Source: Candidatus Shapirobacteria bacterium CG_4_10_14_0_8_um_filter_39_15
Lineage (GTDB): Bacteria; Patescibacteriota; Microgenomatia; UM-FILTER-39-15
Direction: 5' to 3'
NCBI GenBank assembly: GCA_002784465.1
Contig: PFLE01000004.1
Coordinates: 8,494 to 72,493, forward strand
DNA: 64,000 nucleotides
Of the stretch, positions 3,632 through 20,400 are shown piece after piece (position 1 is the stretch's first letter; every line of letters begins with the position of its first letter). A program made the position numbers and the translations under genes. The notes beneath the pieces were generated by a model, which saw only the letters and a list, made by a program, of their open reading frames with translations, did not search any database and was not told where the DNA came from.

Positions 3632-3639
3632 ACAAATGC

Positions 3640-3873
3640 TCACAGAATACTTCCTCCCCCGTGATAGGGAAAAAGTCCCGGAATTTGTGTCATCATTTGT
3701 TCGGTTTCCAACTCAGTTCGAGCAACCTCATCTGGTGTGGGGGATCGTTTGAGAATATCCGCCAGAAACGCCTTGGTAACGTTATCTCTGAATCTGGCAT
3801 AGATCTTGATGCTACCGGTAACGATCAAACAGCTAACTGCAAAACAGATGATCCCAGTAATAATTAAAGCCAT
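3640..3873 (-). CDS. Hypothetical small membrane protein
   Basis: 77 aa ORF with one TM helix and no recognisable motif. Confidence 0.3.
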   Translation of the reverse strand: MALIITGIICFAVSCLIVTGSIKIYARFRDNVTKAFLADILKRSPTPDEVARTELETEQMMTQIPGLFPYHGGGSIL

Positions 3874-4548
3874 TTGTCCCTCCTCTTTAGAAATACCTTA
3901 ATTTTTTTGGGATATTTAGTTGACGAAATTGACGCTAATACCTATTCGGCGCAAATGCAAAGATTGCGAAACCAGGGTTGGTATCAGCGGTCAACGGTTC
4001 AATCAACCATTTCCCGATTGCTTTCGGTAGGGGATATCGAAAAGACAATTAAAAATGGAAGAAGCTATTATCGCTTGACTTCCAAAGGGTCAGAAAGAAT
4101 AAAAGAAGATGTTCCTTTATTGAAATTAGCCGAAAAATCTTGGGATGGGAAGTGGAGAATGGTTATTTTTGACATCAAAGAAAAATATCGACGCCAAAGG
4201 GAAGGCTTAAGAAGGAAACTTTTGTCATTAGGTTTTGGCATGTGGCAGGAATCAGTTTATATTACCCCCTTTGATATTGCCCAAGAAGTAAATCAGTATC
4301 TTCTTTCCCAAAAACTTTTTCCCCATGCGATTTGTCTGGTGGCCAAAAGGAATGAAGTGGGGGATGAAAAAATTCTGGCGAATTATATCTGGAAATTAGA
4401 TAAGGAGATATTGTTCTCCAATGCCCAAGGCCCCAGCAGAAGGCTGACGGCAATTTCGAGAAACGAGAGCTCCTCGGGGGGATTAAGAAAGAGCTTTTTC
4501 ACTTTTCACCTCCTTTTTTGCGACCAACTTCTTAAATTGCTGACTTAG
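3874..4548 (+). CDS. PaaX-like winged-helix regulator, paralog 1 (C-terminal part degenerate)
   Basis: Shares the core WDGKWRMVIFDIKEKYRRQREGLRRKLLSLGFGMWQESVYITPFD with four other ORFs in this window. It has an N-terminal wHTH-like segment but lacks the C-terminal DDPxLP..LLP..W.G motif seen in the other paralogs. Confidence 0.6.
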   Translation: MSLLFRNTLIFLGYLVDEIDANTYSAQMQRLRNQGWYQRSTVQSTISRLLSVGDIEKTIKNGRSYYRLTSKGSERIKEDVPLLKLAEKSWDGKWRMVIFDIKEKYRRQREGLRRKLLSLGFGMWQESVYITPFDIAQEVNQYLLSQKLFPHAICLVAKRNEVGDEKILANYIWKLDKEILFSNAQGPSRRLTAISRNESSSGGLRKSFFTFHLLFCDQLLKLLT

Positions 4549-4585
4549 ATTGTTATAATTGTTAGATTGTTATAATGTTAGAATG
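4548..4585. repeat. AT-rich TTGTTATA / TTGCTATA motif element (copy upstream of dprA)
   Basis: GATTGTTATAATTGTTAGATTGTTATAATGTTAGAATG. Related copies occur at 5676-5760, 31498-31586 and 53687-53731. Confidence 0.6.
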
Positions 4586-5670
4586 TGACGAATGAAGAGA
4601 AAAAATATTGGATTGGGTTTTCCTGCGTGCCGGGAATTGGGCCAAAGAAATTTAAAACTTTATTAAAATATTTCGGGTCGGCGGAGAAGGCCTGGAAAGG
4701 GGACTTACGGGAAGTTGGATTTAAGGAAGAATCCATTAGGAATTTTAATAATTTTAGAGAAAAGTTTGACTTTTCTTCGTATTTCCTTCGGTTAGAAAAA
4801 CTGGGTGTAAATAGCCTAATACTAGAGGATAAAAATTACCCAGAAAGTTTGAAACAGCTGGAGGATGCCCCCTTTGTGATTTACCTGTTGGGAGAAATTT
4901 TACCGTCTGATGAATTGGCAATTGGAATTGTGGGAACCAGAAAGATTACGGGCTATGGAAAACAGGTGACCGAGAGTTTGACGGCCGATTTAGTCAGTAA
5001 TGGTTTAACAATCGTTTCCGGTTTGGCCTATGGAGTGGATTACGCGGCTCACTCAACCGCATTGGAAATGGGCGGCCGAACCATCGGGGTTTGGGCCGGC
5101 GGTTTGGATACGGTTAATGATGGATTTAGAAAATCTTTGGTGGAAAAAATTTTGAAGCAAAAACAGGGAACGATTATTTCCGAATATCCTTTAGGTTTTG
5201 AGCCGCGGCGGACGACTTTTCCCCAAAGAAACCGAATTATTTCCGGCTTGTCATTGGGAGTTTTGGTCACTGAAGCAGCCGAGGACTCGGGTTCCCTAAT
5301 AACCGCCAAATGTGCCGTAGAACAAGGACGAAAAGTTTTTGCTGTCCCGGGTCCAATTACTTCCTCGTTAAGTGCCGGTACCGCGAAGCTTCTAAAAGAA
5401 AAAGCAATTTTAGTTTATAATGTTAAAGATATTCTGGATGAAATTAATATCGCGGTTAGGGAAAAGGGGCTAGCGGCGAGGGAGATATTACCAGAGAACG
5501 AGAACGAGGAAAAAATTCTGGCGTCGTTGAAAAATGAGAACCGAAACATTGACGAGATTGCTAAAATAACTAGAATAGAAATAAGCCAACTTTCAGGGAT
5601 AATGGCGATTCTGGAATTAAAAGGTATAGTGGTAAATTTAGGGGGATCCGTTTTTGGTTTAGGAAGATAG
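4585..5670 (+). CDS. dprA: DNA processing protein DprA (Smf)
   Basis: Rossmann-like DprA core (GIVGTRKITGYGKQ ... VSGLAYGVDYAAH ... AVPGPI) plus a C-terminal wHTH. Confidence 0.85.
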   Translation: MTNEEKKYWIGFSCVPGIGPKKFKTLLKYFGSAEKAWKGDLREVGFKEESIRNFNNFREKFDFSSYFLRLEKLGVNSLILEDKNYPESLKQLEDAPFVIYLLGEILPSDELAIGIVGTRKITGYGKQVTESLTADLVSNGLTIVSGLAYGVDYAAHSTALEMGGRTIGVWAGGLDTVNDGFRKSLVEKILKQKQGTIISEYPLGFEPRRTTFPQRNRIISGLSLGVLVTEAAEDSGSLITAKCAVEQGRKVFAVPGPITSSLSAGTAKLLKEKAILVYNVKDILDEINIAVREKGLAAREILPENENEEKILASLKNENRNIDEIAKITRIEISQLSGIMAILELKGIVVNLGGSVFGLGR

Positions 5671-5675
5671 AGGAT

Positions 5676-5760
5676 GATTGCTATATTGCTATATTGCTAT
5701 ATTGTTAGCCTGCGGGTAGAAAATAACAATATAACAATCGTAACAATATAACAATTATTG
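5676..5760. repeat. AT-rich TTGCTATA motif element forming a long imperfect inverted repeat (dprA-topA intergenic)
   Basis: GATTGCTATATTGCTATATTGCTATATTGTTAGCC, a loop, then AACAATATAACAATCGTAACAATATAACAATTATTG. Confidence 0.6.
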
Positions 5761-5761
5761 T

Positions 5762-7771
5762 ATGGATTTAATTATAGTAGAATCACCAACAAAAGCGCGA
5801 ACGTTATCAAGATTCCTGGGGTCTGATTATCAGATCGAAGCCACCATGGGCCATATCCGTGATTTGCCGCAAAAAAAGTTTGCCATTAAAACCGATAAGG
5901 ATTTTGAACCGGAATATGCGGTTGTTCCCGGAAAAGAAGAAACCATTAAAAGATTGCAAACCTTAGCCAAAAAGGCTGGTAAAATTTATCTGGCAACAGA
6001 CCCCGATCGCGAGGGAGAAGCAATCGCATGGCATGCTCGCATTGCCTGCGAAAATCCGAAATCCGAAGCACGAAATTCGAAATTTGTGAGAGCAACCTTT
6101 CACGAAATTACTAAGACGGCAATTGAACACGCGCTGAAAAACCCACGTGATATTGATATGGCCCTAGTTAATGCCCAGCAGGCGAGGAGAGTTTTGGATC
6201 GGATTGTCGGTTACAAACTCTCGCCTCTTTTGTGGTTTAAAATCCGCAAGGGTTTATCGGCAGGTAGAGTCCAAACTGTCGCGGTCCGTTTAATCGTCGA
6301 GCGGGAAAGAGAAATTGAAAAATTCATTACAGTAGAATATTGGGAAATTTTCGTGGGTTTGAAAAAACATTTGGGCGGGATGATGCCGGATGCCTCGATT
6401 TTTAATGCCAAACTAATTTCTGAAAACGGCCAAAAATTGGAATTGCATAATCAGCAAGAATCGGATATTCGGGTAAGTGAGTTAAATGACGCTGGTTATG
6501 AAGTCCAAAATATTGAGAAAAAACTGGCCAAAAGACCGCCGCCCCCGCCATTTACGACTTCGACTTTACAACAGCAAGCCGCCAATCGTTTGGGTTGGCC
6601 GGCTAAAAAAACGATGAGCGTTGCCCAAAGTCTTTATGAAAAAGGTTTAATTACTTATCACCGGACCGATTCGACTAATTTGGCAATGGAGGCGGTGATT
6701 GCCGCCAGAGAATTTATTAAACAAAAATACGGAGAGAATTTTTTACCCGAAAAACCAAGGTTTTACAAAACAAAATCAAAAGTAGCGCAGGAAGCGCATG
6801 AAGCGATACGTCCAACTGAAGTTGGGTGGGAAGCGGGAAGCGGGAAGCTGCTTGCCCTGAGCGGAGTCGAAGGGGAAGTTGGATACGATGAACAAAAATT
6901 ATACGATTTGATTTGGAAAAGATTTACGGCCTGTCAAATGAGCGAGGCAGTTTTTGATGAGACAAAGTTATCAGTCTTGGCTACATCTAAAACTAACCAT
7001 TATGATTTGGAAACCTTGGGAAGAATAATCAAATTTGCCGGCTGGTTAACTTTGTACGGTAAGGGCGAGAGTGACGAAGACGGGCAATTGCAACTACCAG
7101 AATTGTTTATCGGCGATGAATTAGATTTGGTGAAAGTGAACCCGCTACAGAAATTTACCAAACCGCCGGCGAGATATAACGAGGCTTCTTTAATTAAAAC
7201 TTTGGAAGAATACGGAATTGGCCGGCCGTCAACTTATGCCCCGACGATTTCCACAATTCAAGACCGGATGTATGTTGAAAAAACAGAGAATAAATTTTCC
7301 CCAACTTCCTTGGGAATAGCGGTTAATGATTTCCTGCTGGAATATTTTCCGGACATTTTTGATTATCAATTTACTGCCCACATGGAAGACGATTTGGATG
7401 AAATTGCCAACGGAAAAAAGGAATGGGTGCCGGTAATTAGAGAATTTTTCGAACCATTTAACACGAAGTTGACCAGTGTTTCCAAAGTTTCCGAAAGAGT
7501 GGCTGTCGAAACGGAAGTCACAGACGAAAAATGTCCGCAGTGCGGCGCGCCCCTGGTAGTTCGTTTAGGCCGTTATGGTAAATTTCTTTCCTGCTCAAAA
7601 TTCCCGGAATGTAAATTCACGAAACCTTTCATAAAAGAAGCCGGTTTTAATTGTCCAAAATGCGGCGCACCGGTGGTTTTAAGAAAAACTAAAAAAGGGA
7701 AAACTTTTTACGGTTGTTCCAAATGGCCTAAGTGTGATTTTGCCACCTGGCGTAAACCAAACGTCAACTGA
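5762..7771 (+). CDS. topA: DNA topoisomerase I
   Basis: Toprim N-terminus (IIVESPTKARTL), a catalytic domain, and two C-terminal zinc ribbons (CPQCGAPLVVRLGRYGKFLSCSKFPEC and CPKCGAPVVLRKTKKGKTFYGCSKWPKC). Confidence 0.92.
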   Translation: MDLIIVESPTKARTLSRFLGSDYQIEATMGHIRDLPQKKFAIKTDKDFEPEYAVVPGKEETIKRLQTLAKKAGKIYLATDPDREGEAIAWHARIACENPKSEARNSKFVRATFHEITKTAIEHALKNPRDIDMALVNAQQARRVLDRIVGYKLSPLLWFKIRKGLSAGRVQTVAVRLIVEREREIEKFITVEYWEIFVGLKKHLGGMMPDASIFNAKLISENGQKLELHNQQESDIRVSELNDAGYEVQNIEKKLAKRPPPPPFTTSTLQQQAANRLGWPAKKTMSVAQSLYEKGLITYHRTDSTNLAMEAVIAAREFIKQKYGENFLPEKPRFYKTKSKVAQEAHEAIRPTEVGWEAGSGKLLALSGVEGEVGYDEQKLYDLIWKRFTACQMSEAVFDETKLSVLATSKTNHYDLETLGRIIKFAGWLTLYGKGESDEDGQLQLPELFIGDELDLVKVNPLQKFTKPPARYNEASLIKTLEEYGIGRPSTYAPTISTIQDRMYVEKTENKFSPTSLGIAVNDFLLEYFPDIFDYQFTAHMEDDLDEIANGKKEWVPVIREFFEPFNTKLTSVSKVSERVAVETEVTDEKCPQCGAPLVVRLGRYGKFLSCSKFPECKFTKPFIKEAGFNCPKCGAPVVLRKTKKGKTFYGCSKWPKCDFATWRKPNVN

Positions 7772-7789
7772 CAAGGTTAGACCTTGTCA
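7769..7789. repeat. REP-like 21-bp perfect palindrome TGACAAGGTTAGACCTTGTCA (copy 1; overlaps the topA TGA stop and the RAYT stop)
   Basis: Exact palindrome read directly from the sequence. Confidence 0.9.
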
Positions 7790-8502
7790 CTAATAGTATC
7801 AGCGTTGTCGAGAGCGAATTTACCTAATAGTTCTTCAGAATTTCCCGCATAGTCTTCAATAAATTTTTTATAAGAATTTATTTCTTTAGGAATAAGAAGA
7901 TTGGTGGAATCGAAATAATCAAGAATAATTTTTGGCTTAATCCAATCGGCAGATTTATTGCCTAGATAATAATTATAACTGGAGTAGGGAGAATTGACAG
8001 GGTTAAATCCTTTATTCGATAGTTCTTTAGGATTGAGATGAATATATCGAGATAAATGTAATAGATAAGAATCTTCCTGAATTAAAGCTGCCTTAAAGGC
8101 TCCTTGGAAAAGATGCCCAACTCTTTTATATCGACTATTGAAATACATAGAATAAGTTGTTAAAAGTCTTCTTAGTAATTTAGTCATTCCGTCTAAGGTC
8201 AATTGTTGTATGAGTAAATGAAAATGGTTCGGCATAAGACAATAGGCTAGTAAGATAACTTCGTTTTTTAGATTTTGGAGCGGTCGTAATCTGACAGGGT
8301 TAAACCCTGTCAGGATAAGATTAGCAAGTGGGTGTTGTTTTTGGTCGTTTTTGGTTTGCTCGGAGAGATAATACTTTAGTAGATGTAAAAAAACTCGATA
8401 ATCTTGGTCATCTAAAAAAATGTTACGTTTTTCAACTCCTCGATTGTAAACATGGTAGAATCCGTTTTCCACATACTGCTTAATAATATTTCTGGAGGGC
8501 AT
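7777..8502 (-). CDS. REP-associated tyrosine transposase (RAYT; IS200/IS605 TnpA-like Y1 HUH enzyme)
   Basis: HUH motif (LMPNHFHLLIQ) and the catalytic-Tyr region (SRYIHLNPKE) match the RAYT signature (YIHxNPV). The gene is bracketed by two copies of the 21-bp palindrome TGACAAGGTTAGACCTTGTCA. Confidence 0.8.
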   Translation of the reverse strand: MPSRNIIKQYVENGFYHVYNRGVEKRNIFLDDQDYRVFLHLLKYYLSEQTKNDQKQHPLANLILTGFNPVRLRPLQNLKNEVILLAYCLMPNHFHLLIQQLTLDGMTKLLRRLLTTYSMYFNSRYKRVGHLFQGAFKAALIQEDSYLLHLSRYIHLNPKELSNKGFNPVNSPYSSYNYYLGNKSADWIKPKIILDYFDSTNLLIPKEINSYKKFIEDYAGNSEELLGKFALDNADTISDKV

Positions 8503-8518
8503 ATTACCTACATTTTAT

Positions 8519-8539
8519 TGACAAGGTTAGACCTTGTCA
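8519..8539. repeat. REP-like palindrome TGACAAGGTTAGACCTTGTCA (copy 2; 17 bp upstream of the RAYT start)
   Basis: Exact palindrome read directly from the sequence. Confidence 0.9.
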
Positions 8540-8600
8540 AGTGGCGAAGAAAAAAAAGAGCCCCCGGCTTTGGAAAATACACAAAGCTAATGGCTCCCCT

Positions 8601-8864
8601 TTATCCTCGCAAAGAAATAGCCAATACCTCTATTGCCACCATAGTTACAAAACTTATAACACGGCGGTTTTTAGAAGCAACATTCAGAGAGGCCGCAATA
8701 AAAATCAACAAGAGTTTGGTTTCTATAATTAAACTTTTGTTTGTTGCGTCCCCAGCCCCTAAGATGATAAAGAACTGGATTAACCAAATACCCAGAAACC
8801 ATTGCAGAACTTGCACAAGTCTAGAGGTTTTGCACCCGAACCATTTTTCGATTTTCCCAGGCAT
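8601..8864 (-). CDS. Hypothetical small membrane protein
   Basis: 87 aa hydrophobic ORF adjacent to the RAYT; there is no homology signal. Confidence 0.3.
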   Translation of the reverse strand: MPGKIEKWFGCKTSRLVQVLQWFLGIWLIQFFIILGAGDATNKSLIIETKLLLIFIAASLNVASKNRRVISFVTMVAIEVLAISLRG

Positions 8865-8883
8865 ATGCCACCTCCTTTGACGG

Positions 8884-9147
8884 TTACATTCCGGAATTCT
8901 TTTGAACTTGATTGGCGATTTCTTCTGCGATCCTATCCAAGACTTTCATCGCCATGTGTTTGGCGAGTAAGGACAAAACTAATTCAACAATCATCAGGAA
9001 AAATCCAATCAAAAAGGCGGTACTTGAAAACGTGCTCGGGAAGAGAAGGGCGATGGTTCCAGCAAGAATGGTTATTATGCCCCAGCCGGTGGCCACGGGA
9101 TTTGCCCCAATCTCCCTAAATTCGTTGGTTAAAAGGATAAAAAACAC
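8884..9147 (-). CDS. Hypothetical small membrane protein (GTG start)
   Basis: 87 aa with two predicted TM helices. Confidence 0.35.
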   Translation of the reverse strand: MFFILLTNEFREIGANPVATGWGIITILAGTIALLFPSTFSSTAFLIGFFLMIVELVLSLLAKHMAMKVLDRIAEEIANQVQKNSGM

Positions 9148-9346
9148 AAAAATTAGCCCGATCCATCTCGGAGGATAGACGATCGCCAGAAATAGAAATC
9201 CAATGACAATAACCCGGAGTCCGTCAAAGATCCAAATCCAACGCTATTGTTTCTTGTTCCAAATCCAGCCCAGGATGATTATTCCCAGGCCGACAAACCG
9301 AACAATTTGGATTTCCATTTGACCTCCTTATGACTGGCGATTTTAA

Positions 9347-10267
9347 TTGATAAACCGAATTGGAAATGTGCGCAAAAAGGATTATACTCTTTTTGTGAAG
9401 CCTTATCAAAAAATTCTGTTTTTTCTTTTTTTAATCTCTCTTGGGTTGGTGATTGGCATTTTGGTTCGTTCAAAAAATAGTTATCCGTCAACCAATCCAA
9501 TTGAAACGGGGCAACCCGTTGCCACCCAATCTGCTTTTTCTACCGCAGTTGAAGAAGCTCAAAAGAAAGAAGAAGAGAAACAACGTCAGCAGGAAGAAAC
9601 TAAAAAATTTATCGCGACTTATGGTCCGTGTCGTTTTGTCCCAGTTTTAATGTATCATCATGTTGCCAACAAATCCGGTTCTCTTTATGTCAGACCGGAT
9701 ATTTTTGCCAGCCAAATGAATTATTTAAACCAAAAAGGTTATACCTCGGTTACGTTGTCCGATGTGATGGAAAGCCTGATTTCCGGTAAACCATTGCCGG
9801 CAAAACCGGTGATAATCACTTTCGATGATGGTTATAAAGATATCTATCAAAATGCTTACGGAGTTCTTAATTTCAATAACCAAAAAGCGACACTCTTTAT
9901 TATCACTCAATTGTTGGGTGGTAGTGACTATCTGAATTGGGAAGAGTTGAGAGAAATGGCGGGCAATCCATTGATAACAGTTGGTGATCACACATTATCA
10001 CACCGCAGCCTTACTTTAATTACGGCAGCGGAAGTGAAGAATGAAATTGTTTCAGCTAAAAGCATCCTTGAAGCAAACCTGGGCGTGACAGTAAATACTT
10101 TTGCCTATCCATATGGAACATTTAATGGGGAAGCGGAACAAATTTTAAGTCAGTCAGGTTTTGCCGCCGCCGTGACCACTCACTACGGCTTAACCTGCGC
10201 CAAACTGCCCTTTGAAATTCCCCGTGTTCGGGTTGGTAATTCCCAGTTATCAGCTTACGGATTGTGA
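9347..10267 (+). CDS. Polysaccharide deacetylase (NodB-homology domain), membrane-anchored
   Basis: N-terminal TM helix, a KE-rich linker, and NodB motifs (ITFDDGYKD, TVGDHTLSHRSL). Confidence 0.75.
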   Translation: MINRIGNVRKKDYTLFVKPYQKILFFLFLISLGLVIGILVRSKNSYPSTNPIETGQPVATQSAFSTAVEEAQKKEEEKQRQQEETKKFIATYGPCRFVPVLMYHHVANKSGSLYVRPDIFASQMNYLNQKGYTSVTLSDVMESLISGKPLPAKPVIITFDDGYKDIYQNAYGVLNFNNQKATLFIITQLLGGSDYLNWEELREMAGNPLITVGDHTLSHRSLTLITAAEVKNEIVSAKSILEANLGVTVNTFAYPYGTFNGEAEQILSQSGFAAAVTTHYGLTCAKLPFEIPRVRVGNSQLSAYGL

Positions 10268-10281
10268 TTTAGCCTCTTTAC

Positions 10282-10302
10282 TGACAAGGTCTAACCTTGT
10301 CG
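10282..10302. repeat. REP-like palindrome variant TGACAAGGTCTAACCTTGTCG (copy 3; opposite orientation with a CTA centre)
   Basis: Read directly; lies downstream of the polysaccharide deacetylase gene. Confidence 0.85.
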
Positions 10303-10466
10303 TGCGCGGTGACGGACCCAAGTTGACCGGTCATTAATTTCTTTTGCCTGATTCGGGGTGACTGATTCCTGTTTTCTTGGGGTTTGGTCTAAGCCGGCTT
10401 CTTCTGAACTCATAATTTCATTTTACCATATTTACAAAATGAAATTTTCCTTTAAACTTAATAATA

Positions 10467-12035
10467 ATGGCAGGCAAAAGGACAATTGACTTTACGGTTT
10501 TGGTCGATCAATATCTCCATCATGATGGTTGGAAAGCTAAAGCGACTTCTAATTCCAATTATTCCCTGTCTGGTCTAATTTCTCATACTTCGGCTTCGGT
10601 CTTGGCAAATTATGCCTTACAGAATATTTATTCACCTGCTGCCCGTAAAGCTCACGAACAAGGGATAATTCATATTCATGATTTGGCTCACTCTTTAGTC
10701 GGTTATTGTGCCGGCTGGTCGCTACAAAAATTATTAATGCAGGGATTCGGCGGGGTTGACGGGCAAATTGAAACTAAACCGGCAGCCCATTTTTCCACGG
10801 CGGTTCAGCACGTAGTTTATTTTCTAAAATCGATGTATCAGGAATGGGCGGGAGCACAGGCTTTTTCTTCTTTTGACACGATAATGGCCCCGTTTATTTT
10901 TTATGATGAATTAACTTACTCGCAAGTTTACCAAGAAATCCAAAAACTGGTCTATTCTATTAATTTGCCTAACCGCTGGGGATTTGAAATGACTTTTTCC
11001 AATTTAACTTTTGACTGGATTGTTTCTAATGATTTGGCTGACCAGCCGGCAATTATTGGCGGAAAATTAATGAAGAAAAAATATAAGGAATTTCAGAAAG
11101 AAGCAGACATGATCAACCGGGCTTTTTTGGAAGTAATGCTGAAAGGTGATAAGAATGGCCGGCCGTTTACTTTCCCAATTCCGACTTACAATATTACCAA
11201 AGAGTTTTTTGAAACCAATGGCGACAATCAAAAATTATTATTTCAGGTGACAGCAAAATATGGCTTACCGTATTTTCAAAATTATATTGGGTCAGGTTTA
11301 GATCCTTCTTCTATCCGGGCGATGTGCTGCCGGTTAAATATGAATTTAAATGAATTAATGAAGCAGCCGGGGAATCTTTGGGCAAAAGGGGATTCAACCG
11401 GATCGGTGGGGGTAGTGACGATTAATTTGAACCGACTTGCCTGGGAAGGGGCTAGCGGCAAGGGGCGAGCGGCTAGGGAAGAAAATGCCAAAAAGAAATT
11501 TTTTAAGCTGCTCAAAAAATATATTAATATTTCTGCCGATTCGTTGGAGAAAAAAAGAGAAGTAATCGAAAAAAGTATGAAAGACGGTTTGATGCCTTAT
11601 TCTAAATATTATTTGGGAACTTTTAGAAATCATTTTTCCACTATTGGGGTTTGCGGCGGTAATGAGGCCTGTTTGAATCTTCTGGGTCAGGATTTGACGA
11701 CTCCGGAAGGACAGAAATTTATCCAGGAAACCTTGAATTTTATGAAAGAGGAGATGGTTAAAATACAAAAAAAGACTGGTCATTTGTATAATTTGGAAGC
11801 GACCCCGGCCGAATCAACCGCTTACCGTTTTGCCCTGTTGGACCAGAAACTTTGTTCAGGAATAAAACTGGCAGGATCTTCTGATTCACCTTATTTGACT
11901 AACTCAACTCAACTGCCGGTAGATTTTAGTTCAGATCTTTGGGAAGCTCTCAATTTACAAAATGAAATTCAGGCGGCTTATACCGGCGGGACAATTTTCC
12001 ATACATTTTTAGGAGAAGAAATGGAAGATTGGTAA
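10467..12035 (+). CDS. nrdD: Anaerobic ribonucleoside-triphosphate reductase NrdD (class III), main body, terminated by an in-frame TAA
   Basis: Class III RNR catalytic core. The ORF ends ...GEEMEDW with TAA at 12033-12035, and the glycyl-radical domain continues in the same frame 9 nt later. Confidence 0.8.
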   Translation: MAGKRTIDFTVLVDQYLHHDGWKAKATSNSNYSLSGLISHTSASVLANYALQNIYSPAARKAHEQGIIHIHDLAHSLVGYCAGWSLQKLLMQGFGGVDGQIETKPAAHFSTAVQHVVYFLKSMYQEWAGAQAFSSFDTIMAPFIFYDELTYSQVYQEIQKLVYSINLPNRWGFEMTFSNLTFDWIVSNDLADQPAIIGGKLMKKKYKEFQKEADMINRAFLEVMLKGDKNGRPFTFPIPTYNITKEFFETNGDNQKLLFQVTAKYGLPYFQNYIGSGLDPSSIRAMCCRLNMNLNELMKQPGNLWAKGDSTGSVGVVTINLNRLAWEGASGKGRAAREENAKKKFFKLLKKYINISADSLEKKREVIEKSMKDGLMPYSKYYLGTFRNHFSTIGVCGGNEACLNLLGQDLTTPEGQKFIQETLNFMKEEMVKIQKKTGHLYNLEATPAESTAYRFALLDQKLCSGIKLAGSSDSPYLTNSTQLPVDFSSDLWEALNLQNEIQAAYTGGTIFHTFLGEEMEDW

Positions 12036-12044
12036 TCGGCTAAA

Positions 12045-12290
12045 GTGTTAGTCAAAAAAATCGCCGAAACCACAAAAATTCCCTATTTTACCATTACCCC
12101 GACTTTTTCTGTTTGCAAAAAAGATGGTAGAATGAAAGGCAAAGTTGAGAAATGTCCCAAGTGCGGAGGCGAAACGGAAATCTACTCAAGAATAGTCGGC
12201 TACCTGCGTCCTTTAAACCGTTGGAATCCGGGCAAGGCGGAAGAATTTAAAGAAAGAAAAACGTTTGAGATTACGAGTCATTCTGAGTGA
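12045..12290 (+). CDS. nrdD: NrdD C-terminal glycyl-radical / zinc-ribbon domain (same frame as 10467..12035, separated by one TAA)
   Basis: Carries CPKCG and the RIVGYL glycyl-radical motif. Its last codons and the stop lie inside a GTCATTCTGAG hairpin repeat. Confidence 0.7.
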   Translation: MLVKKIAETTKIPYFTITPTFSVCKKDGRMKGKVEKCPKCGGETEIYSRIVGYLRPLNRWNPGKAEEFKERKTFEITSHSE

Positions 12291-12387
12291 CCCTTACAGG
12301 GGTAAACGAAGAATCTAGCAAGGTCAAGCTAAGCTTGACTAAGCGCGCTGCTAGATCCTTCTCCGGCAAAGCCGGATTAGGATGACT
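12277..12387. repeat. Hairpin repeat R, copy 2
   Basis: GTCATTCTGAGTGACCCTTACAGGGGTAAACGAAGAATCTAGC ... GCTAGATCCTTC ... GGATGAC. It supplies the last codons and stop of the nrdD C-terminal ORF. Confidence 0.75.
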
Positions 12388-12395
12388 AACAAAAT

Positions 12396-12818
12396 ATGTT
12401 AGTTAAATTTAAAAAACTAAAACCGGAAGCGTCATTGCCTAGATATGCTTACCCGGGAGATACAGGAATGGATATTTTTTCTGCCGAGGATTTTATTTTA
12501 AATCCCGGAGAATGGCATAGTTTTTCTACCGGTCTTGCTTCGGAAATTTCCCCGGGGTTTTTTATAAGATTTGCTCCCAAAAGCGGGTTGGCGGTTAAAC
12601 ACGGGGTTGATACTTTGGCGGGGGTAATTGATAGTACTTATCGAGGAGAATGGATGGTGGTTTTGGTTAATCATGGTAAAGAGCCAAAAGAATTTAAAAT
12701 TGGAGATAAACTTGCCCAGGCAATTCTGCAACGGTTTGAAATGACAGAAAGATTAGAAGTTAGCGAATTATCCGGCTCGCAACGCGGTCAAGGCGGGTTT
12801 GGAAGCACTGGTAAGTAA
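12396..12818 (+). CDS. dut: dUTP diphosphatase
   Basis: dUTPase motifs (GLAVKHGVDTLAGVIDSTYRGE ... SQRGQGGFGSTGK). Confidence 0.9.
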   Translation: MLVKFKKLKPEASLPRYAYPGDTGMDIFSAEDFILNPGEWHSFSTGLASEISPGFFIRFAPKSGLAVKHGVDTLAGVIDSTYRGEWMVVLVNHGKEPKEFKIGDKLAQAILQRFEMTERLEVSELSGSQRGQGGFGSTGK

Positions 12819-12834
12819 CGATAATAACTATAGG

Positions 12835-12855
12835 TGACAAGGTTAGACCTTGTCA
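12835..12855. repeat. REP-like palindrome TGACAAGGTTAGACCTTGTCA (copy 4; between dut and thyX)
   Basis: Exact palindrome read directly from the sequence. Confidence 0.9.
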
Positions 12856-12929
12856 ATAAAACACTTTAATTCCTCGAACATTTGTGATATAAACGCAGAG
12901 GACATTAACATTAAAAAAGGAGGCTTCAA

Positions 12930-13649
12930 GTGAAAATCCTAAAAGGACAGGGGAGTTTTGAGATATATGAAACTCCAGAAGAGTTGAGAGTTCAGTTGTT
13001 GAAGATCGAAAGGGTCGGCCGAACGTGTTATCAGTCAGAAAGAGAACCGATAACGATGGAAACAGCGATCAAGTTTAGCCGGATGTTGGCCAGTCGTCAT
13101 CACTATTCCCTATGGAATTTTGGATTTATGACCGTAAAGTTCGTGCATTGTTCGCGGGGGTTCACTCACGAGTTAGTTCGCCATCGTCTTGCCGCTTATG
13201 CACAGGAATCAACTAGATACGTGGATTATTCTGGTGGGGATGAACCAGATTTGAAGCATTTCGAGCTTAAGTGTATTGTTCCTCCGCATCATGACGAGAA
13301 TGAGAAAATCACACTTGATGATGGACGAATAATGACTTGTTTAGAGATGCTGGGGGAAACAGAAAGGTTCTATCGAGGATTACGTTCTGCTGGTTGGCTT
13401 CCTGATGCCGCGCGGCAGCTTTTACCAACTGCTATCAAGGCAGACATCTGGATCGAGACGAACTTTACCGAATGGCGGCACATTTTCGAAATGCGAACAC
13501 AGCTAGCCGCCCACTGGGAAATCCGTGCCGTCATGTGTGCCTTGCTTGAAGCGGTTCAAAAGATTATACCTGTCATATTCGATGATTTTGTTTTGGCCGG
13601 TACGGACAAGAATGGTCTGCGATATTACGAGCTGGCAAAACAGTCATGA
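12930..13649 (+). CDS. thyX: Flavin-dependent thymidylate synthase ThyX
   Basis: ThyX RHRxxxxxxxS signature (LVRHRLAAYAQESTRY). Confidence 0.9.
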   Translation: MKILKGQGSFEIYETPEELRVQLLKIERVGRTCYQSEREPITMETAIKFSRMLASRHHYSLWNFGFMTVKFVHCSRGFTHELVRHRLAAYAQESTRYVDYSGGDEPDLKHFELKCIVPPHHDENEKITLDDGRIMTCLEMLGETERFYRGLRSAGWLPDAARQLLPTAIKADIWIETNFTEWRHIFEMRTQLAAHWEIRAVMCALLEAVQKIIPVIFDDFVLAGTDKNGLRYYELAKQS

Positions 13650-13717
13650 AGTCTGCAATGCGCAGTAATTTTATAGATACTTATAAAGTTGCTGCGCTTT
13701 TTTATATAATAGTTAAA

Positions 13718-14383
13718 ATGAAAGGAATTTATCTTGCTTTTGAGGGAGGAGAAGGTTTTGGAAAATCAACTCAGGCAAAAATATTGTTTGAAAAACTAAA
13801 AGAGAAATTTCCCAAAAGAAAAATTATTTTAACTCGGGAGCCGGGAGGCAGTTCAATTGCCGAAGAAGTAAGAGAAATAATATTAACTTCAAGAAAAGAC
13901 GAGCAAATCCAATTATTAACTGAAGCCTATTTGTTTGCAGCTGCCAGAGCCCAATCGCTTCGGGAAAGTGTTGTTCCGGTTTTGGAGGAAGGCGGAATTG
14001 TAATTTCCGATCGTACTTTTTATTCCAGCATTGCCTACCAAGGTTTTGGCAGGGAATTAGGATGGAAAAAAGTCTGGAAAATTAATCAGGAAGCAGTCGG
14101 TAAAATAAAGCCTGATTTAGTTTATTTATTTGATGGTGACCCAAAAATTGGTTTAGATAGAATTTGCAAAAATAAAAGAGAAACAAATCGTTTAGATAAA
14201 GAAAAACTCGAATTTCATAAGCGGGTAAGAAAAGGATTTTTATTTTTATGCGATAAAGAACCAAAACGTTTTGTGACCATTGATGGTTGTTCAAGTATTG
14301 AGAAGCAATCCGAAATTATTTGGGCACAGTTTTGCAGATTTAATAGACGATCGGCGTATGATTCTGCAAAGATGGTACAATAA
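13718..14383 (+). CDS. tmk: Thymidylate kinase
   Basis: P-loop [15 protein letters not shown] and the LID/REPGG region. The start is placed at MKGIY; the ORF track extends upstream to 13646, overlapping the end of thyX. Confidence 0.85.
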
Positions 14384-14387
14384 TAAT

Positions 14388-15743
14388 ATGGAAAATAAAA
14401 TTTTGCAACTAATTAAAAAAGAAGAACAAAGACAAGCTGATACGCTTATGATGATTCCCTCGGAAAATTATACTTATCCGGAAGTCCGGCAGGCGGTTGG
14501 GTCGGTTTTAATGCATAAATATGCGGAAGGCCAGCCTGGAAGAAGATATTATCAAGGAAATTCGGTGGCGGACCAGGTGGAAAGCGAATGCGAGAGATTA
14601 GCCCTGGAAGCCTTTGGATTAAATTCCGATCAGTGGGGTGTTAATGTCCAACCCTATTCCGGCTGTCCGGCTAATCTGGCGGTTTATAACGGAATACTCG
14701 ATATTGGAGATCGGATATTGGCTATGTATCTGCCTGATGGCGGGCATTTATCCCACGGGTGGCAAACTCCGGAGAAAAAAATCACTTTTGTTTCCAAAAT
14801 CTGGCAGGTGGAATTTTATCATGTAGATCCGAAAACCAGAGTTTTTGATTATGACCAAATTGAAAAACAAGCTTTAAAATTTAAACCAAAATTAATTATT
14901 TCCGGCGGAACGGCTTATCCACGGGAAATTGACTATCAACGTCTGTCGGGAATTGCAAAGTCTGTCGGAGCGTATTATATGGCCGATATTGCCCATGAAG
15001 CCGGATTAATTGCCGGTGGAGCCAATAAATCTCCTTTCCCTTATGCTGATGTGGTGACCATGACAACCCATAAAACTTTACGCGGTCCAAGAGGAGCGAT
15101 TATTATTTGTAAAAAAGAATTATTGGAAGCAATTGATCAGTCAATATTTCCTGGGTTGCAGGGAGGACCGCATTTACACACGATCGCCGGAATCGCCATT
15201 GCTTTGGAAAAAACCAAAACACCCGAATTTAAAAATTATGCTTTCCAAACAGTTAAGAACGCTCAAAGATTAGCCCAAAGACTAACGATTAAAGACTATG
15301 ACGTCGTCAGCGGGGGAACGGACAAACACCTTGTCTTGCTTGATTTAAGAAATAAAAATATCAGCGGTTGGTTTGTGGCTTGGGCTTTGGAAAAAGCGGG
15401 AATTATTATGAACCGAAACACCGTGCCAAACGACACCGGTTCGCCATTTTATCCATCTGGTTTACGAATGGGAACACCGGTCTTGACGGTGAGGGGGATG
15501 CGCGAAAAGGAGATGGATTTAATCGCGAGGTGGATAGATGAAGTGATACAGCACCTGGGTCCGAGAGAAATGCCGGAGAAGCAGCCCGCCTTGCTCGCCT
15601 CGCGGCGAAGCGGGCGGCGAGGCAGGGAAGCGAGAAGTAAGATGCGGGAGGAATTTAAAAAAGAAATTGAAAAAGATGAGTTTTTAAATAATATTAGTCT
15701 TCAGGTCAAAGACCTCTGCAATAAATTCCCCATACCAGGATAA
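14388..15743 (+). CDS. glyA: Serine hydroxymethyltransferase
   Basis: SHMT N-terminus ([37 protein letters not shown]) and the PLP-lysine region ([12 protein letters not shown]). There is a C-terminal extension containing a GA-rich repeat, and the stop lies within a hairpin repeat. Confidence 0.9.
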
Positions 15744-15795
15744 GTCATCCTGAGTGTTTATTCTGTAAAGGGGAGCGAAGGATCTAGCGTCAGCG
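15744..15795. repeat. Hairpin repeat R, copy 3 (left half only)
   Basis: GTCATCCTGAGTG ... GCGAAGGATCTAGCG, located after glyA. Confidence 0.6.
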
Positions 15796-15819
15796 TTAAA
15801 TAACAATTATTATTTTATT

Positions 15820-16089
15820 GTGTTTGTTTATATTCTTACTAATTTTACCAATACGGTTTTGTATACGGGAGTAACGAATAATTTGGAGCGAAGAATTTGG
15901 GAGCATAAAAACCATCTTTTTAAGAACTCTTTTACTGATAAATATAAAATATATAAACTACTTTGGTATCAGGAATTTAATTCTCCGGAAGAAGCAATAA
16001 CCGCCGAAAAGAAAATAAAAGGTTGGACCAGACAAAAGAAGATAAATTTAATAATGGAATTAAATCCAGAATTTAAAGAATTAGGTTGA
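15820..16089 (+). CDS. GIY-YIG nuclease family protein (standalone, 89 aa)
   Basis: GIY-YIG core (VYILTN ... LYTGVTNNLERRIWEHK), flanked on both sides by GTCATYCTGAG-type hairpin repeats. Confidence 0.75.
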   Translation: MFVYILTNFTNTVLYTGVTNNLERRIWEHKNHLFKNSFTDKYKIYKLLWYQEFNSPEEAITAEKKIKGWTRQKKINLIMELNPEFKELG

Positions 16090-16092
16090 TAA

Positions 16093-16208
16093 AGAAGATT
16101 CTTCGTTACACTCTGAATGACCTAAAGAGAAGATTCTTCACTTTGTTCAGAATGACACCGATTCGTCATCCCGAGCACATTCGACAAGCTCAGTGCGAGG
16201 GATCTTCC
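16093..16208. repeat. Hairpin repeat R, copy 4 (rearranged: two right halves then one left half)
   Basis: Two ...CTGAATGAC / ...CAGAATGAC right halves followed by GTCATCCCGAGC ... GGGATCTTCC, between the GIY-YIG gene and folD. Confidence 0.65.
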
Positions 16209-16228
16209 AAATATGGTAAAATCAAAAG

Positions 16229-17092
16229 ATGGCCATTATTTTTGACGGAAAAAAATTAGCGGGAGAATTGGCAGAAAAATTAGATCGTGATGTTACTGAA
16301 TTTAAAGTTAAAACCGGAATTACTCCTAAATTGGTGAGTATTTTAGTGGGTGATGACCCAGCCTCGGTGCTTTATACCAAAATAAAACAAAAAAAGGCAG
16401 AGAGCGTGGGGATAGACTTTATTAAGAAAGAATTTCCGGAGAATGTTGAGCCGGAGGAATTGATTTCTGTTATAGAACAGCTAAACAAGGATAATTCAGT
16501 GCATGGAATTATGATTCAGCTTCCACTTCCCCGACAATCCGTAATTCGTAATTCGCAATCCGTAATCGTAGATACAATCAATCCTCAAAAAGACGTTGAT
16601 TGTTTGACTTCTGTAAATCTGGAATTGGTTAAACAAGGGAAACCTCGATTTCTTCCGGCGACCGTTCAAGCTATTTTTAAGATTATTAACCAAATACCCC
16701 GAGGTGCAGGTACGAATTCACCTTTAAGGTGTGAACGTAGTTATTGCGTAGTGGGATCGAGTGGAATGGTGGGGAAACCGCTGGCGGATTATCTGGAAAA
16801 TCAAGGATATCAGGTCAATCTTTGTGATGAATTTACCCCCGATATTTCCGTTTTTACCAAACAAGCCGATATTTTGATTTCTGCGACCGGAATTCCCAAT
16901 CTGATTAAAAAAGAAATGGTTAAGGCCGGTGTAGTTGTAATTGACGTTGGTTCGCCGGTAGGGGATGTGGATTTTGAAAATGTTAGTCAGGTGGCGTCAT
17001 TTATTACCCCTGTTCCTGGTGGTGTCGGGCCGTTAACCGTAATTTCGCTTCTTGAAAATACTCTTCAAGCATGCTATAATGCGCTTGCTTGA
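16229..17092 (+). CDS. folD: Bifunctional methylenetetrahydrofolate dehydrogenase / cyclohydrolase
   Basis: FolD motifs (VGDDPASVLYTKIK, HGIMIQLPLP, VVGSSGMVGKPLA). Confidence 0.88.
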   Translation: MAIIFDGKKLAGELAEKLDRDVTEFKVKTGITPKLVSILVGDDPASVLYTKIKQKKAESVGIDFIKKEFPENVEPEELISVIEQLNKDNSVHGIMIQLPLPRQSVIRNSQSVIVDTINPQKDVDCLTSVNLELVKQGKPRFLPATVQAIFKIINQIPRGAGTNSPLRCERSYCVVGSSGMVGKPLADYLENQGYQVNLCDEFTPDISVFTKQADILISATGIPNLIKKEMVKAGVVVIDVGSPVGDVDFENVSQVASFITPVPGGVGPLTVISLLENTLQACYNALA

Positions 17093-17290
17093 CAGAATCA
17101 ATAGCGATTCTGATTCTTGCAGCCCGTAAGGGCAGTAGAAAATTGTTAAGCCGCGTAGTTTAACGGCAAAACAACGAAAGTTATGTAGGTTCGAATCCTA
17201 TCACGGCTTAGCATTTAGCAAAAGATTACTCACACTCGATATTGCTCCCTGAAACCATAATCGAGTGGGGGAATAAGGGAGCATTTACAA

Positions 17291-18010
17291 ATGGAAATTA
17301 GTTTAAAAGAATTATTGGAAGCCGGTTGTCATTTTGGCCACCAAACCGTCCGTTGGAATCCAAAAATGAAGCCGTATATTTTTACGGCGCGCGAAGGCGT
17401 GCATGTTTTTGATTTGGTTAAAACAAAAGAAGGACTAGAGGCCGCCTGCGACATTGCCAAAACTACGGTGAGCCAAGGTGGATTGATTCTTTTTGTCGGT
17501 TCCAAAAGACAAGCCAGAGATATTGTCAGCGAGGTTTGTCAAAAAATTGGTATGCCTTATGTGACGCAAAGATGGATGGGGGGAATGATTACCAATTGGG
17601 ACCAAGTAAAAAAAAGCGTCGAAAAAATGGCCCAGTTAAAAGAAGGCCGGGAAAAAGGCGAATATAAAACCTATACTAAAAAAGAACAATTATTAATTGA
17701 CCGGCAAATTATGAAACTGGAAAAATTCTTTGGCGGCGTCGCCGGCTTGAAGGAATTGCCGCAAGCGCTTTTTGTGGTTGATGCCAAAAGGGAACTTTCC
17801 GCGGTGAAAGAAGCCAACCGCCGGGGAATTCCGGTTATTTCCATGGTTGATACTAATTCCGACCCCGATTTAATTAATTATGTCATCCCGGTTAATGACG
17901 ACGCAGTGGCGTCAATAAAATTGATTGTGGAAAAAATGGGAGAGTCTATTCAAGAGGGAATAAAATTAAACAAGGACAAGAAACCTGCAAACACTGAAAC
18001 ACTGAAATGA
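17291..18010 (+). CDS. rpsB: 30S ribosomal protein S2
   Basis: S2 N-terminus (LLEAGCHFGHQTVRWNPKM) in the rpsB-tsf order, with a C-terminal tail containing an AACACTGAA repeat. Confidence 0.92.
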   Translation: MEISLKELLEAGCHFGHQTVRWNPKMKPYIFTAREGVHVFDLVKTKEGLEAACDIAKTTVSQGGLILFVGSKRQARDIVSEVCQKIGMPYVTQRWMGGMITNWDQVKKSVEKMAQLKEGREKGEYKTYTKKEQLLIDRQIMKLEKFFGGVAGLKELPQALFVVDAKRELSAVKEANRRGIPVISMVDTNSDPDLINYVIPVNDDAVASIKLIVEKMGESIQEGIKLNKDKKPANTETLK

Positions 18011-18471
18011 TAACCGTATCCGTTGATTTAATAAAAAAATTAAGAGAAGAGACAAATGCGCCGGTGATGGAGTGTAAATCGGCGTTGCAGGAAGCCAATG
18101 GAGATATAGAAAAAGCTAAAGAAATTCTCAAGAAAAAAGGGATGGAAAGAGCCGATAAAAAAGCCAGCCGGGAAACCAAAGCTGGTCTTGTCGAATCTTA
18201 TACCCATAACAACGGCCGGGTCGGGGTGATGGTGGAGGTTTTTTGTGAAACGGATTTTGTCGCCAGAAATGAAGAGTTTAAAAAACTTTGCCACGAATTA
18301 GCCTTGCAAATCGCTTCAATGAATCCGGAATCGGTTGCCGATTTATTTGCTCAACCATGGATTCGGGATGAAAGCAAAACGATTGAACAGCTGGTAAAAG
18401 AAACAATCGGAAAACTGGGAGAAAATATTAAAGTGAACAGATTTGTGAGATTTGAGCTTGGAGTTGACTAG
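18007..18471 (+). CDS. tsf: Elongation factor Ts (short form)
   Basis: UBA-like N-terminus (LIKKLREETNAPVMECKSALQEANGDIEKAKEILKKKG) and a dimerisation core. Confidence 0.85.
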   Translation: MITVSVDLIKKLREETNAPVMECKSALQEANGDIEKAKEILKKKGMERADKKASRETKAGLVESYTHNNGRVGVMVEVFCETDFVARNEEFKKLCHELALQIASMNPESVADLFAQPWIRDESKTIEQLVKETIGKLGENIKVNRFVRFELGVD

Positions 18472-18541
18472 TCATTCTGAGCCGTAGGCGAAGAATCCAG
18501 CGAAGCGTTGCTTCTGGATCCTTCGTTGCACTCAGGATGAC
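18471..18541. repeat. Hairpin repeat R, copy 5 (compact, near-perfect)
   Basis: GTCATTCTGAGCcgtagGCGAAGAATCCAGcgaagcgttgcttCTGGATCCTTCGttgcaCTCAGGATGAC, between tsf and frr. Confidence 0.85.
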
Positions 18542-18554
18542 AGGATAAAGCATT

Positions 18555-19109
18555 ATGAACTTAACTGACATTCGTCCTAAAATGGAAAAAGCCCTGGAAA
18601 TTCTTCAGGGAGAATTATCTTCAATCCGCACCGGACGGGCTACTTCTTCACTGGTTGAAAATATTGTCTGTTCTGTATATGGAGGAGCCCAAAAATTAAA
18701 AGTGGTTGAGTTGGGAATGATTGGTGTTTTGGATGCCAGAACTATTACCATAACTCCTTGGGACAATTCCATTGTTGGAGAAATCCGTCAGGGAATTTTA
18801 GCGGCCAACGTTGGATTAATGCCGATTATTGACGGAGCGGTGATTCGGGTGGCGGTTCCGGCGTTAACTTTGGAACGGCGCCAGGAATACATAAAATTAT
18901 TATCAAGACAATTAGAAAATGGTAAAATTATGATCCGCCAGGTGAGACATGAGAAAATGGCGGATATTAAAAACAGTTTTGAGAATAAGGAAATGGGGGA
19001 AGATGAGAAATTCAGACTGGAAGAAGAATTACAGAAAGTGACTGATGAATTTGTTAATAAAATAGATGAGATAGGAAAGAAAAAAGAAGAAGAACTCCTT
19101 ACTGTATAA
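18555..19109 (+). CDS. frr: Ribosome recycling factor
   Basis: 184 aa with typical RRF sequence (MEKALEILQGELSSIRTGRA ... ). Confidence 0.88.
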   Translation: MNLTDIRPKMEKALEILQGELSSIRTGRATSSLVENIVCSVYGGAQKLKVVELGMIGVLDARTITITPWDNSIVGEIRQGILAANVGLMPIIDGAVIRVAVPALTLERRQEYIKLLSRQLENGKIMIRQVRHEKMADIKNSFENKEMGEDEKFRLEEELQKVTDEFVNKIDEIGKKKEEELLTV

Positions 19110-19221
19110 CAGTTAAACAGTAAAACGGTAAAACAGTATTCTGTTGATCGGTATGCTATCTTACTGACTTACTGACTACTGATTTACTGATATACCGTTT
19201 AACCAATTTACCGAAAAAGAC

Positions 19222-20400
19222 ATGTTATCAACCCTACTTATTTTTTTAATAATCCTTTCAATCTTGGTTCTAGTTCACGAGCTGGGTCATTTCCTGGTTG
19301 CTAAAAAAGCCGGGATCAAAGTTGAAGAATTTGGTTTTGGATTGCCGCCAAGAATTTGGGGAAAGAAAATTGGGGAGACAATATATTCCATTAATGTTTT
19401 ACCAATTGGAGGATTCGTAAAAATGTACGGGGAAGAAGGGGAGGTTGGGAAGCGGGAAGCAAGAAGCGAGAAGTTAGAAAGAGCATTCTATGCCAAATCT
19501 AAAAAAGTTAGATTAGCGGTAGTGGCGGCAGGCGTAACGATGAATTTTCTGTTGGCGGTGGGTATTTTTTCCTTTGTTTATGCCAAATTAGGGATTCCGG
19601 TAAAGACGAACCAAGTGAGAGTGGTGGAAATTGCTCCAAACTCTCCGGCATCGGTCAGCGGTTTACAATTAGACGATGTGATTATTAAAGCGGGTGAGGA
19701 AAAAATAGATGACGCCTCGAAATTTATCCAAGCTACGAAAAAATTCGCCGGCCAAAAAATGCCTTTGGAAATTGATCGGGTTAACAATCCCTGTAAGTCT
19801 AACGTAATGGGGGCGACTCCAGGTTTGGTGATTGCCTGTAAGGATGGAAACATGCTTTTTTATGTGACCCCCAGACTTAATCCACCGGCGAATGAAGGAC
19901 CGCTTGGAGTGGCAATTTCCCAAATAGAAAATAAATTTTATCCTTGGCCGGAGCAAATAGTCCGCGGTTCAATAGAAGGATTCAAGGAAGCCTTTGGTTG
20001 GATCCAGTTGATTCTTTCGGGTTTGGGAACAATGTTAAGTCAACTTTTCCACGGATCAGTGCCCAAAGATGTGGCCGGACCGATAGGGATTTTTCAAGTT
20101 ACCGGCGAAGTTTCCAAGGGAGGAATTTTATCTTTATTGCAATTTTTAGGAATTTTGTCGGTAAATTTGGCGGTTATCAACATTTTGCCCCTGCCGGCCT
20201 TAGATGGCGGACGGGTTTTGTTTATTGTAATAGAAACAATAACCAAAAGAAAAGTAAATCAGGAATTAGAAACCAAAATTCATAACATTGGAATGATAGT
20301 TTTACTCACCTTAATTCTTCTTATTACGATAAATGATATTTCCAGAATTTTAACAACTTTCGGTATCTTATCTCGTCTCCGTTCGCTTCTTCCATTATAA
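19222..20400 (+). CDS. rseP: RIP metalloprotease RseP (site-2 protease) with PDZ domain
   Basis: HExxH motif in a TM helix (VHELGHFLVAKKAG), a PDZ domain, and a C-terminal LDGG motif. Confidence 0.85.
   Translation: MLSTLLIFLIILSILVLVHELGHFLVAKKAGIKVEEFGFGLPPRIWGKKIGETIYSINVLPIGGFVKMYGEEGEVGKREARSEKLERAFYAKSKKVRLAVVAAGVTMNFLLAVGIFSFVYAKLGIPVKTNQVRVVEIAPNSPASVSGLQLDDVIIKAGEEKIDDASKFIQATKKFAGQKMPLEIDRVNNPCKSNVMGATPGLVIACKDGNMLFYVTPRLNPPANEGPLGVAISQIENKFYPWPEQIVRGSIEGFKEAFGWIQLILSGLGTMLSQLFHGSVPKDVAGPIGIFQVTGEVSKGGILSLLQFLGILSVNLAVINILPLPALDGGRVLFIVIETITKRKVNQELETKIHNIGMIVLLTLILLITINDISRILTTFGILSRLRSLLPL

Follow-up and report, generated by a model that had tools for sequence, protein, structure and literature searches.

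We analysed a stretch of 64,000 nucleotides from Candidatus Shapirobacteria bacterium CG_4_10_14_0_8_um_filter_39_15 (GenBank assembly GCA_002784465.1, contig PFLE01000004.1, positions 8,494 to 72,493 of the forward strand; hereafter the window), in which nrdD, the gene for a class III ribonucleotide reductase (RNR), is interrupted by an in-frame TAA. The interruption is probably a very recent nonsense mutation, from CAA (Gln523) to TAA, that arose in one strain and leaves a truncated NrdD that would be null or strongly hypomorphic. Metagenome-assembled genomes (MAGs) with the prefix 'CG' derive from the Crystal Geyser aquifer studies, although a literature search for the identifiers of these samples found no paper; other assemblies of the same population retain the intact codon. 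The alternatives that we weigh below are an artefact, a functional enzyme in two pieces, leaky termination and an altered genetic code.

The nrdD reading frame

The nrdD gene spans 10467..12290 on the + strand (all positions are those of the window). An ATG at 10467 starts an open reading frame (ORF) of 522 codons that ends with TAA at 12033-12035 (piece 1), after which the unchanged frame runs for 84 further codons to a TGA at 12288-12290 (piece 2). The earliest start codon past the TAA is a GTG at 12045, after a gap of 9 nt, from which the ORF list gives an ORF of 81 residues. The parts of the gene and the evidence for them are as follows.

10467..12032, + strand: first 522 codons of nrdD, with the catalytic barrel and the finger-loop Cys pair AMCCRL (Pfam NRDD, NF006126)
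12033..12035, + strand: premature TAA, the result of a C-to-T transition at 12033 in a CAA codon (Gln523) (sister assemblies)
12036..12290, + strand: rest of the nrdD frame, 84 codons and TGA, with the last barrel helix and strand, the Zn-ribbon and the loop RIVGY (Pfam, AlphaFold, 4COI alignment)
12045..12047, + strand: GTG, candidate termination-reinitiation site for the 81-residue product PIY66035.1 (ORF list)

In the Pfam profile NRDD (PF13597), positions 3-483 correspond to piece 1 (E = 5.8e-138) and positions 488-562 to piece 2 (E = 9.7e-26). Since the profile runs consecutively across both, the pieces are one gene without a frameshift or an insertion, which confirms the single in-frame TAA reported in a preliminary description of the stretch made from its letters alone. 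Piece 1 by itself scores 729 bits on NCBIfam NF006126 (cutoff 548), and piece 2 by itself scores 95 bits, under that cutoff, with NrdD models as its only NCBIfam matches; for the intact sister allele the scores are 847 bits on NF006126 and 494 bits on TIGR02487 (cutoff 326). The catalytic body and the radical domain share one polypeptide in nine sister assemblies and in the 120 homologs listed, and fall into two separate ORFs in the window. The predicted products of these are deposited at NCBI as PIY66034.1 ('ribonucleoside triphosphate reductase', from piece 1) and PIY66035.1 ('hypothetical protein COY91_01010', 81 residues), both from a contig of 141,683 bp.

Piece 2 bears the motif RIVGYL and three cysteines, C550, C563 and C566 (numbering of the intact protein). 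In an alignment of 31 homologs these cysteines, G578 and Y579 are invariant, and all five lie downstream of the stop. The fourth Zn-ligand position is an Asp; the preliminary description, which had placed both the glycyl-radical motif and the Zn-ribbon cysteines in the second ORF, was correct on the former and slightly generous on the latter.

The NrdD of this lineage is missing the N-terminal ATP-cone, its match to NF006126 beginning at model position 96, and the longer ones among the homologs listed carry PF03477. A candidate repeat motif downstream of nrdD, CCCTTACAGGGGTAAACG, occurs in a single copy within 2 mismatches.

Codon 523 in sister strains and relatives

Sister sequences were reached via protein look-ups; scans of genome contigs with the joined protein and exact-pattern scans for the alleles in genome and metagenome contigs gave no match, the samples evidently lying outside those collections. 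The top database match to the joined protein has 607 residues (...EEMEDWQSAKVLVKK...), with Gln at the position of the stop. Protein P0002, which is 81% identical, also has Q at this site, and remoter relatives have E or R; residue 523 is Q, E or R in the five closest homologs that were fetched, as it is in relatives at 76-81% identity. All of the 120 homologs listed are uninterrupted, with lengths of about 585-880 residues. Within the population itself, CAA (Gln) occupies the codon in nine other assemblies.

JGI: 3300025150, 3300005235, 3300024995
ENA: ERZ27293400, ERZ27293347, ERZ27293351
NCBI and Logan: GCA_002778865.1; SRR5435972, SRR6240789

The TAA is thus the derived state. A 27-kb contig of JGI 3300025150 differs from window positions 467-19734 at 6 of 19,268 bases, without indels, position 12033 (C there, T in the window) being among the six. 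Across 7467-15290 (7.8 kb), five of the CAA assemblies differ from the window solely at 12033, which identifies the T allele as a C-to-T transition of very recent origin. Window and intact alleles are colinear, with no indel, and no mobile element intervenes between the two pieces. No decay is seen downstream of the stop in the T allele, and the ancestral allele coexists with it in the population; the 84 downstream codons are probably still intact only because the mutation is so young. Among the options that the preliminary description had listed, a recent nonsense mutation is therefore strongly supported by this comparison with sister genomes.

Other nrdD variants were noted in passing. A sister strain with an intact nrdD (L004, from JGI 3300025150; also protein P0124) carries S313L, equivalent to window position 11404. 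Ser313 is invariant in 31 NrdD homologs, and a second potentially damaging nrdD variant thus segregates in the population. Proteins P0125 and P0126 represent further single-residue variants.

Authenticity of the T base

The T at 12033 is found in five assemblies, including the MAG of the window, that were made by different assemblers. Across the site the window is 100% identical to ENA ERZ27293407 (a MEGAHIT contig with an overlap of 20.4 kb), to a Logan contig of SRR6240744 (8.7 kb) and to a contig of JGI 3300004088; the T is also present on a 1.5-kb contig of a second JGI dataset, 3300008094. The sample with the T allele shows a linked haplotype elsewhere in the window, with C at 44324, T at 41946 and T at 39986, where the assemblies of other samples that cover these positions have T, C and G, respectively; the stop therefore belongs to a distinct strain. 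This strain was assembled into contigs of 50-141 kb and hence was abundant in its sample.

If the T were an artefact of sequencing, library preparation or assembly, the true base at 12033 would be C. Such an error would be easier to accept if four of the five T-allele assemblies stem from one library, as they may, and in the same MAG at least one base of the consensus, 43902, is not borne out by other assemblies (see below). Agreement among four or five assemblers (MEGAHIT at ENA, those of Logan and JGI, and the MAG's own) and two JGI dataset identifiers nevertheless makes a random consensus error unlikely, and the T sits on a haplotype that differs from other samples at linked sites. We therefore regard an artefact, which the preliminary description had listed as a sequencing error, as very improbable.

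Structural elements lost from the truncated protein

Among solved structures, that of Thermotoga maritima NrdD (4COI) is the closest (E = 5e-37), and in the alignment the stop falls on the loop in ...LGESFKTEEESFNMVK.... An AlphaFold model of the intact allele (predicted template-modelling score, pTM, 0.85; local confidence, pLDDT, about 83-90) gives the order strand 511-514, loop 515-521, helix 522-535, strand 540-544, ribbon strands and Gly loop. According to this model, the 522-residue product is without one barrel helix and one strand, the Zn-ribbon and the radical glycine. By analogy with the established behaviour of glycyl-radical enzymes, it should be catalytically dead alone. T. maritima NrdD and phage T4 NrdD (1H7A) belong to the same family and share with the protein described here the finger-loop Cys pair, the C-terminal Zn-ribbon and the RxxGY loop; the present case differs from both in the stop at codon 523, which parts the radical domain from the body, and in belonging to a lineage without the ATP-cone.

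Absence of nrdG from the window

No nrdG-like radical-SAM activase and no second RNR was found in the 64-kb window, which bears out the preliminary description as regards nrdG. In relatives with an NrdD of 78% and 81% identity, dut and the thymidylate genes come after nrdD, likewise with no adjacent nrdG. Loss of nrdG from an ancestral nrdD-nrdG pair was considered and rejected on account of this same nrdD-dut-thymidylate order in relatives. Judged from gene order, the absence of nrdG beside nrdD appears to be the normal arrangement of the lineage and no sign of decay.

One contig shows a different arrangement. On the 1.5-kb contig of JGI 3300008094 (L024), the T-allele nrdD fragment is joined to an intein-interrupted gene of the NrdG-type radical-SAM family at contig positions 894-1473. 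The junction corresponds to window positions 12266/12267, the divergence beginning 24 bases ahead of the nrdD stop codon. The contig is either a chimeric assembly join or a rare structural variant. A full-length copy of its intein-bearing NrdG was sought; there was no identical protein, and the best match (89%) covers the N-extein only.

Signals for translation of piece 2

The GTG at 12045 is a candidate start for the downstream ORF, and no Shine-Dalgarno (SD) sequence was found before it. In this respect it resembles most genes here: a clear SD precedes only about 6 of the 62 genes in the window, and about 15 natural gene pairs have overlaps or gaps of no more than 21 nt, most of them lacking an SD (such as Tmk-SHMT, 4 nt; HIT-S21, 3 nt; hypothetical-S41, 8 nt; HisRS-L31, 12 nt). 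The many closely spaced pairs without an SD make reinitiation at GTG 12045 plausible.

Piece 2 does not belong to the GrcA/YfiD family, since PF13597 (NRDD) is its sole Pfam match at E <= 0.01 and PF01228 is not matched. Nor is it a conserved separate gene: sister strains and all relatives have it fused, and the T-allele assemblies alone have it apart. A search of the whole protein library with piece 2 returned 2,972 matches, many of them short or matching at the N-terminus. Five of the proteins (P0374, P0403, P0418, P0473 and P0521) are NrdD C-terminal radical-domain proteins of 190-265 residues with a Met start at the helix of piece 2 and a thioredoxin-like CPxC tail; they may be natural split or fused forms or truncated gene calls.

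The RF1 homolog

The preliminary description had also judged the release factor gene RF1 of the window to be compromised. The alignment of the RF1 homolog (43560-44258, - strand) to E. coli RF1 is confined to residues 111-337, and the protein has scores of 298 bits on prfA (model positions 106-339), 199 bits on prfB and 63 bits on PrfH. The 120 RF1 relatives listed (P0133-P0252) have 224-251 residues, keep the PxT motif, give RF1-type scores and are without domain 1. As far as these sequences tell, domain 1 is missing throughout this clade of Microgenomates, and its lack is not damage. A literature search for an RF1 without domain 1 in Patescibacteria found no paper. Displacement of the N-terminal domain into the ORF upstream of RF1 was considered and rejected, as that ORF is ribosomal protein L31. 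The L31 gene (44255-44572, - strand) encodes 105 residues with a Lys/Glu/Arg-rich C-terminal extension of ~35 residues, and its stop and the RF1 start share 4 nt (GTGA).

The homolog reads SHGGHNVQ in place of the expected GGQ (codon 43902-43904, - strand). GGQ is present in 119 of the 120 relatives listed, the lone GGH being the record of this MAG itself, and no record of the GGH product, whether starting with V or with M, was found in JGI, ENA or Logan. Across the 20,699 bases of 33560-54258, the only base that sets the window apart from the ENA assembly with its haplotype and the nrdD TAA is 43902, the third position of the Gln codon, which is CAA in the ENA assembly and CAC in the window; ten other contigs also have CAA. 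Over their whole overlap of 52.8 kb the MAG and this assembly differ at two bases, 26964 and 43902. On the + strand the GGH change is T-to-G, a common type of Illumina error. A consensus error or a minor variant is the most likely source of GGH. That it is a real minor allele, selected as a suppressor of the nrdD stop, is a remote reading. In the dominant genotype of the sample the nrdD TAA occurs together with a normal GGQ, and a functional link between RF1 and the stop is therefore not supported. The apparently compromised RF1 is thus explained in part by a trait of the whole clade and in part by one consensus base that other assemblies do not share; the GGH reading stands for the deposited sequence, and the missing domain as damage does not.

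That one of the two MAG-specific bases should fall on the catalytic Gln of a release factor, when the genome has a premature stop, is an odd coincidence. The other, 26964, lies in a hypothetical ORF (26620-27021, - strand), where residue 20 is Ala in the window and Thr in the ENA assembly; the Logan and JGI contigs break near it, at 27041.

Explanations for the interrupted gene

In the explanation that we favour, one strain of the Crystal Geyser Ca. Shapirobacteria population carries the C-to-T nonsense allele, the TAA is read as an ordinary stop and the 522-residue NrdD would be the main product. The class III RNR allele would then be null or strongly hypomorphic, and the strain would tolerate the loss, for example through deoxynucleoside salvage or supply by a host. 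Three points weigh against this explanation. The abundance of the T-allele strain would be unexpected if loss of the sole RNR seen here were lethal; gene pairs coupled over short gaps without an SD are common here, so that piece 2 could be translated; and the independence of the T-allele assemblies is unproven, as four of them may share the same reads.

The second of these points leads to an accidental but functional enzyme in two pieces. Ribosomes would reinitiate at GTG 12045 after terminating at the TAA, the 81-residue product (helix, last barrel strand, Zn-ribbon and Gly loop) would dock on the 522-residue body, and NrdG would activate the docked product, which would restore some reductase activity. 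The nearness of the GTG to the stop, the abundance of the strain and the position of the break at the boundary between loop 515-521 and helix 522-535 in a confident model are all in keeping with this. Split RNRs can work: the split NrdA of phage Aeh1 reassembles and is functional (PMC2988022), the nrdJ of phage phiYS40 consists of two ORFs 12 nt apart (nrdJ-a and nrdJ-b; PMC3653736), and in a phage survey nrdD was the most frequently split RNR gene (PMC3653736). These genes-in-pieces (Aeh1 NrdA-a/NrdA-b, phiYS40 NrdJ-a/NrdJ-b and the T4-like split nrdD) likewise have two consecutive ORFs per subunit, and the spacer of 9 nt compares with 12 nt in phiYS40 nrdJ. Most of the phage cases listed, however, involve introns, inteins or homing endonucleases and are fixed, whereas here one base is substituted in a single strain. 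The arrangement carries no evolved signal, being one base from an intact gene and absent from all relatives. A GTG without an SD is a weak start, piece 1 is without a barrel strand, which makes its folding and assembly uncertain, and the stand-alone C-terminal fragments among the library proteins are indistinguishable from truncated gene calls. We consider a functional enzyme of this kind unlikely. The preliminary description had likened a split gene to GrcA/YfiD, and piece 2 would indeed be a small separate polypeptide with a glycyl-radical loop that serves a larger catalytic body. GrcA/YfiD, though, is a conserved stand-alone gene homologous to the C-terminus of pyruvate formate-lyase (Pfam Gly_radical), whereas piece 2 is fused in all relatives and also holds structural elements of the barrel; the likeness fails for an evolved architecture and could apply to a by-product of the mutation. 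It is unlikely that one nonsense mutation has made a working two-piece glycyl-radical RNR in the wild through SD-independent reinitiation. If it has, the allele would show in progress a way in which genes-in-pieces enzymes, or spare-part proteins like GrcA, might arise.

Full-length NrdD could also be made if termination were leaky and a small fraction of ribosomes read the UAA as sense. Near-cognate tRNA-Gln can decode UAA, and since the ancestral residue is Gln such decoding would restore the wild-type protein, perhaps aided by an RF1 weakened by the change from GGQ to GGH that the deposited MAG shows. TAA is nevertheless the standard stop of the window, where the 62 genes end in TAA (34), TGA (19) and TAG (9), and stops of the form TAA-T are common among them. 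A fold of 11990-12110 found no significant RNA structure around the stop that could stimulate readthrough (z = -0.9). RF2 reads UAA and would still recognize the stop, and the GGH base is missing at the DNA level from the ENA assembly and the ten other contigs cited above, as is GGH from all other relatives listed. Leaky termination is accordingly a very improbable source of active enzyme. An altered code or programmed recoding, in which TAA would be decoded as an amino acid, draws solely on the in-frame TAA itself and on the odd RF1 of the deposited sequence. The window contains no suppressor tRNA, its tRNAs being His and Leu only, and no other interrupted gene was found in it, neighbouring ORFs in the same frame belonging to separate families (for example HIT then S21). 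The in-frame stop is conserved neither in sister strains nor in relatives, and the short RF1 keeps PxT and has GGQ in every other assembly. With TAA as the main stop, unstructured RNA, no suppressor tRNA in the window and no conservation of the stop, the readthrough or recoding listed as an option in the preliminary description is not supported, and an altered code is already effectively refuted.

A young nonsense mutation, the explanation that we prefer, would be an instance of a well-known kind of event and not recoding. It resembles strain-level nonsense polymorphisms and nascent pseudogenes in that a single transition lies in an otherwise identical haplotype, the ancestral allele coexists and downstream decay is lacking. 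It differs from ordinary nonsense polymorphisms in that the gene hit is the only RNR seen in this region of a reduced Candidate Phyla Radiation (CPR) genome and that the carrier is abundant, so that dispensability is not obvious. To this extent the result is routine: a nonsense single-nucleotide polymorphism segregates in a MAG, and annotation pipelines render it as a truncated nrdD and a 'hypothetical protein'. As a natural experiment it is of modest value: an abundant CPR bacterium with a very reduced genome appears to tolerate a stop in the only visible RNR of the region. Such tolerance would imply dependence on external deoxynucleosides, complementation between the fragments or a short-lived, doomed lineage.

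Other features of the window

Further elements of the 64 kb are listed below. Among them are five paralogs, all on the + strand, that encode a PaaX central (Cas2-like) domain, which is an unusual density for a small genome.

3874-4548, + strand: PaaX central (Cas2-like) domain gene
22646-23386, + strand: PaaX central (Cas2-like) domain gene
32551-33285, + strand: PaaX central (Cas2-like) domain gene
42407-43066, + strand: PaaX central (Cas2-like) domain gene
46928-47707, + strand: PaaX central (Cas2-like) domain gene
49759-52332, + strand: DnaB helicase with an intein that holds a LAGLIDADG endonuclease domain
20825-21955, - strand: rve-family integrase (IS-like)
7777-8502, - strand: Y1 (IS200/IS605-type) transposase

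The rve element is flanked by two ENA contigs, one of which ends at 20899 and the other of which starts at 21888; these breaks on either side suggest that the element is repeated in the genome.

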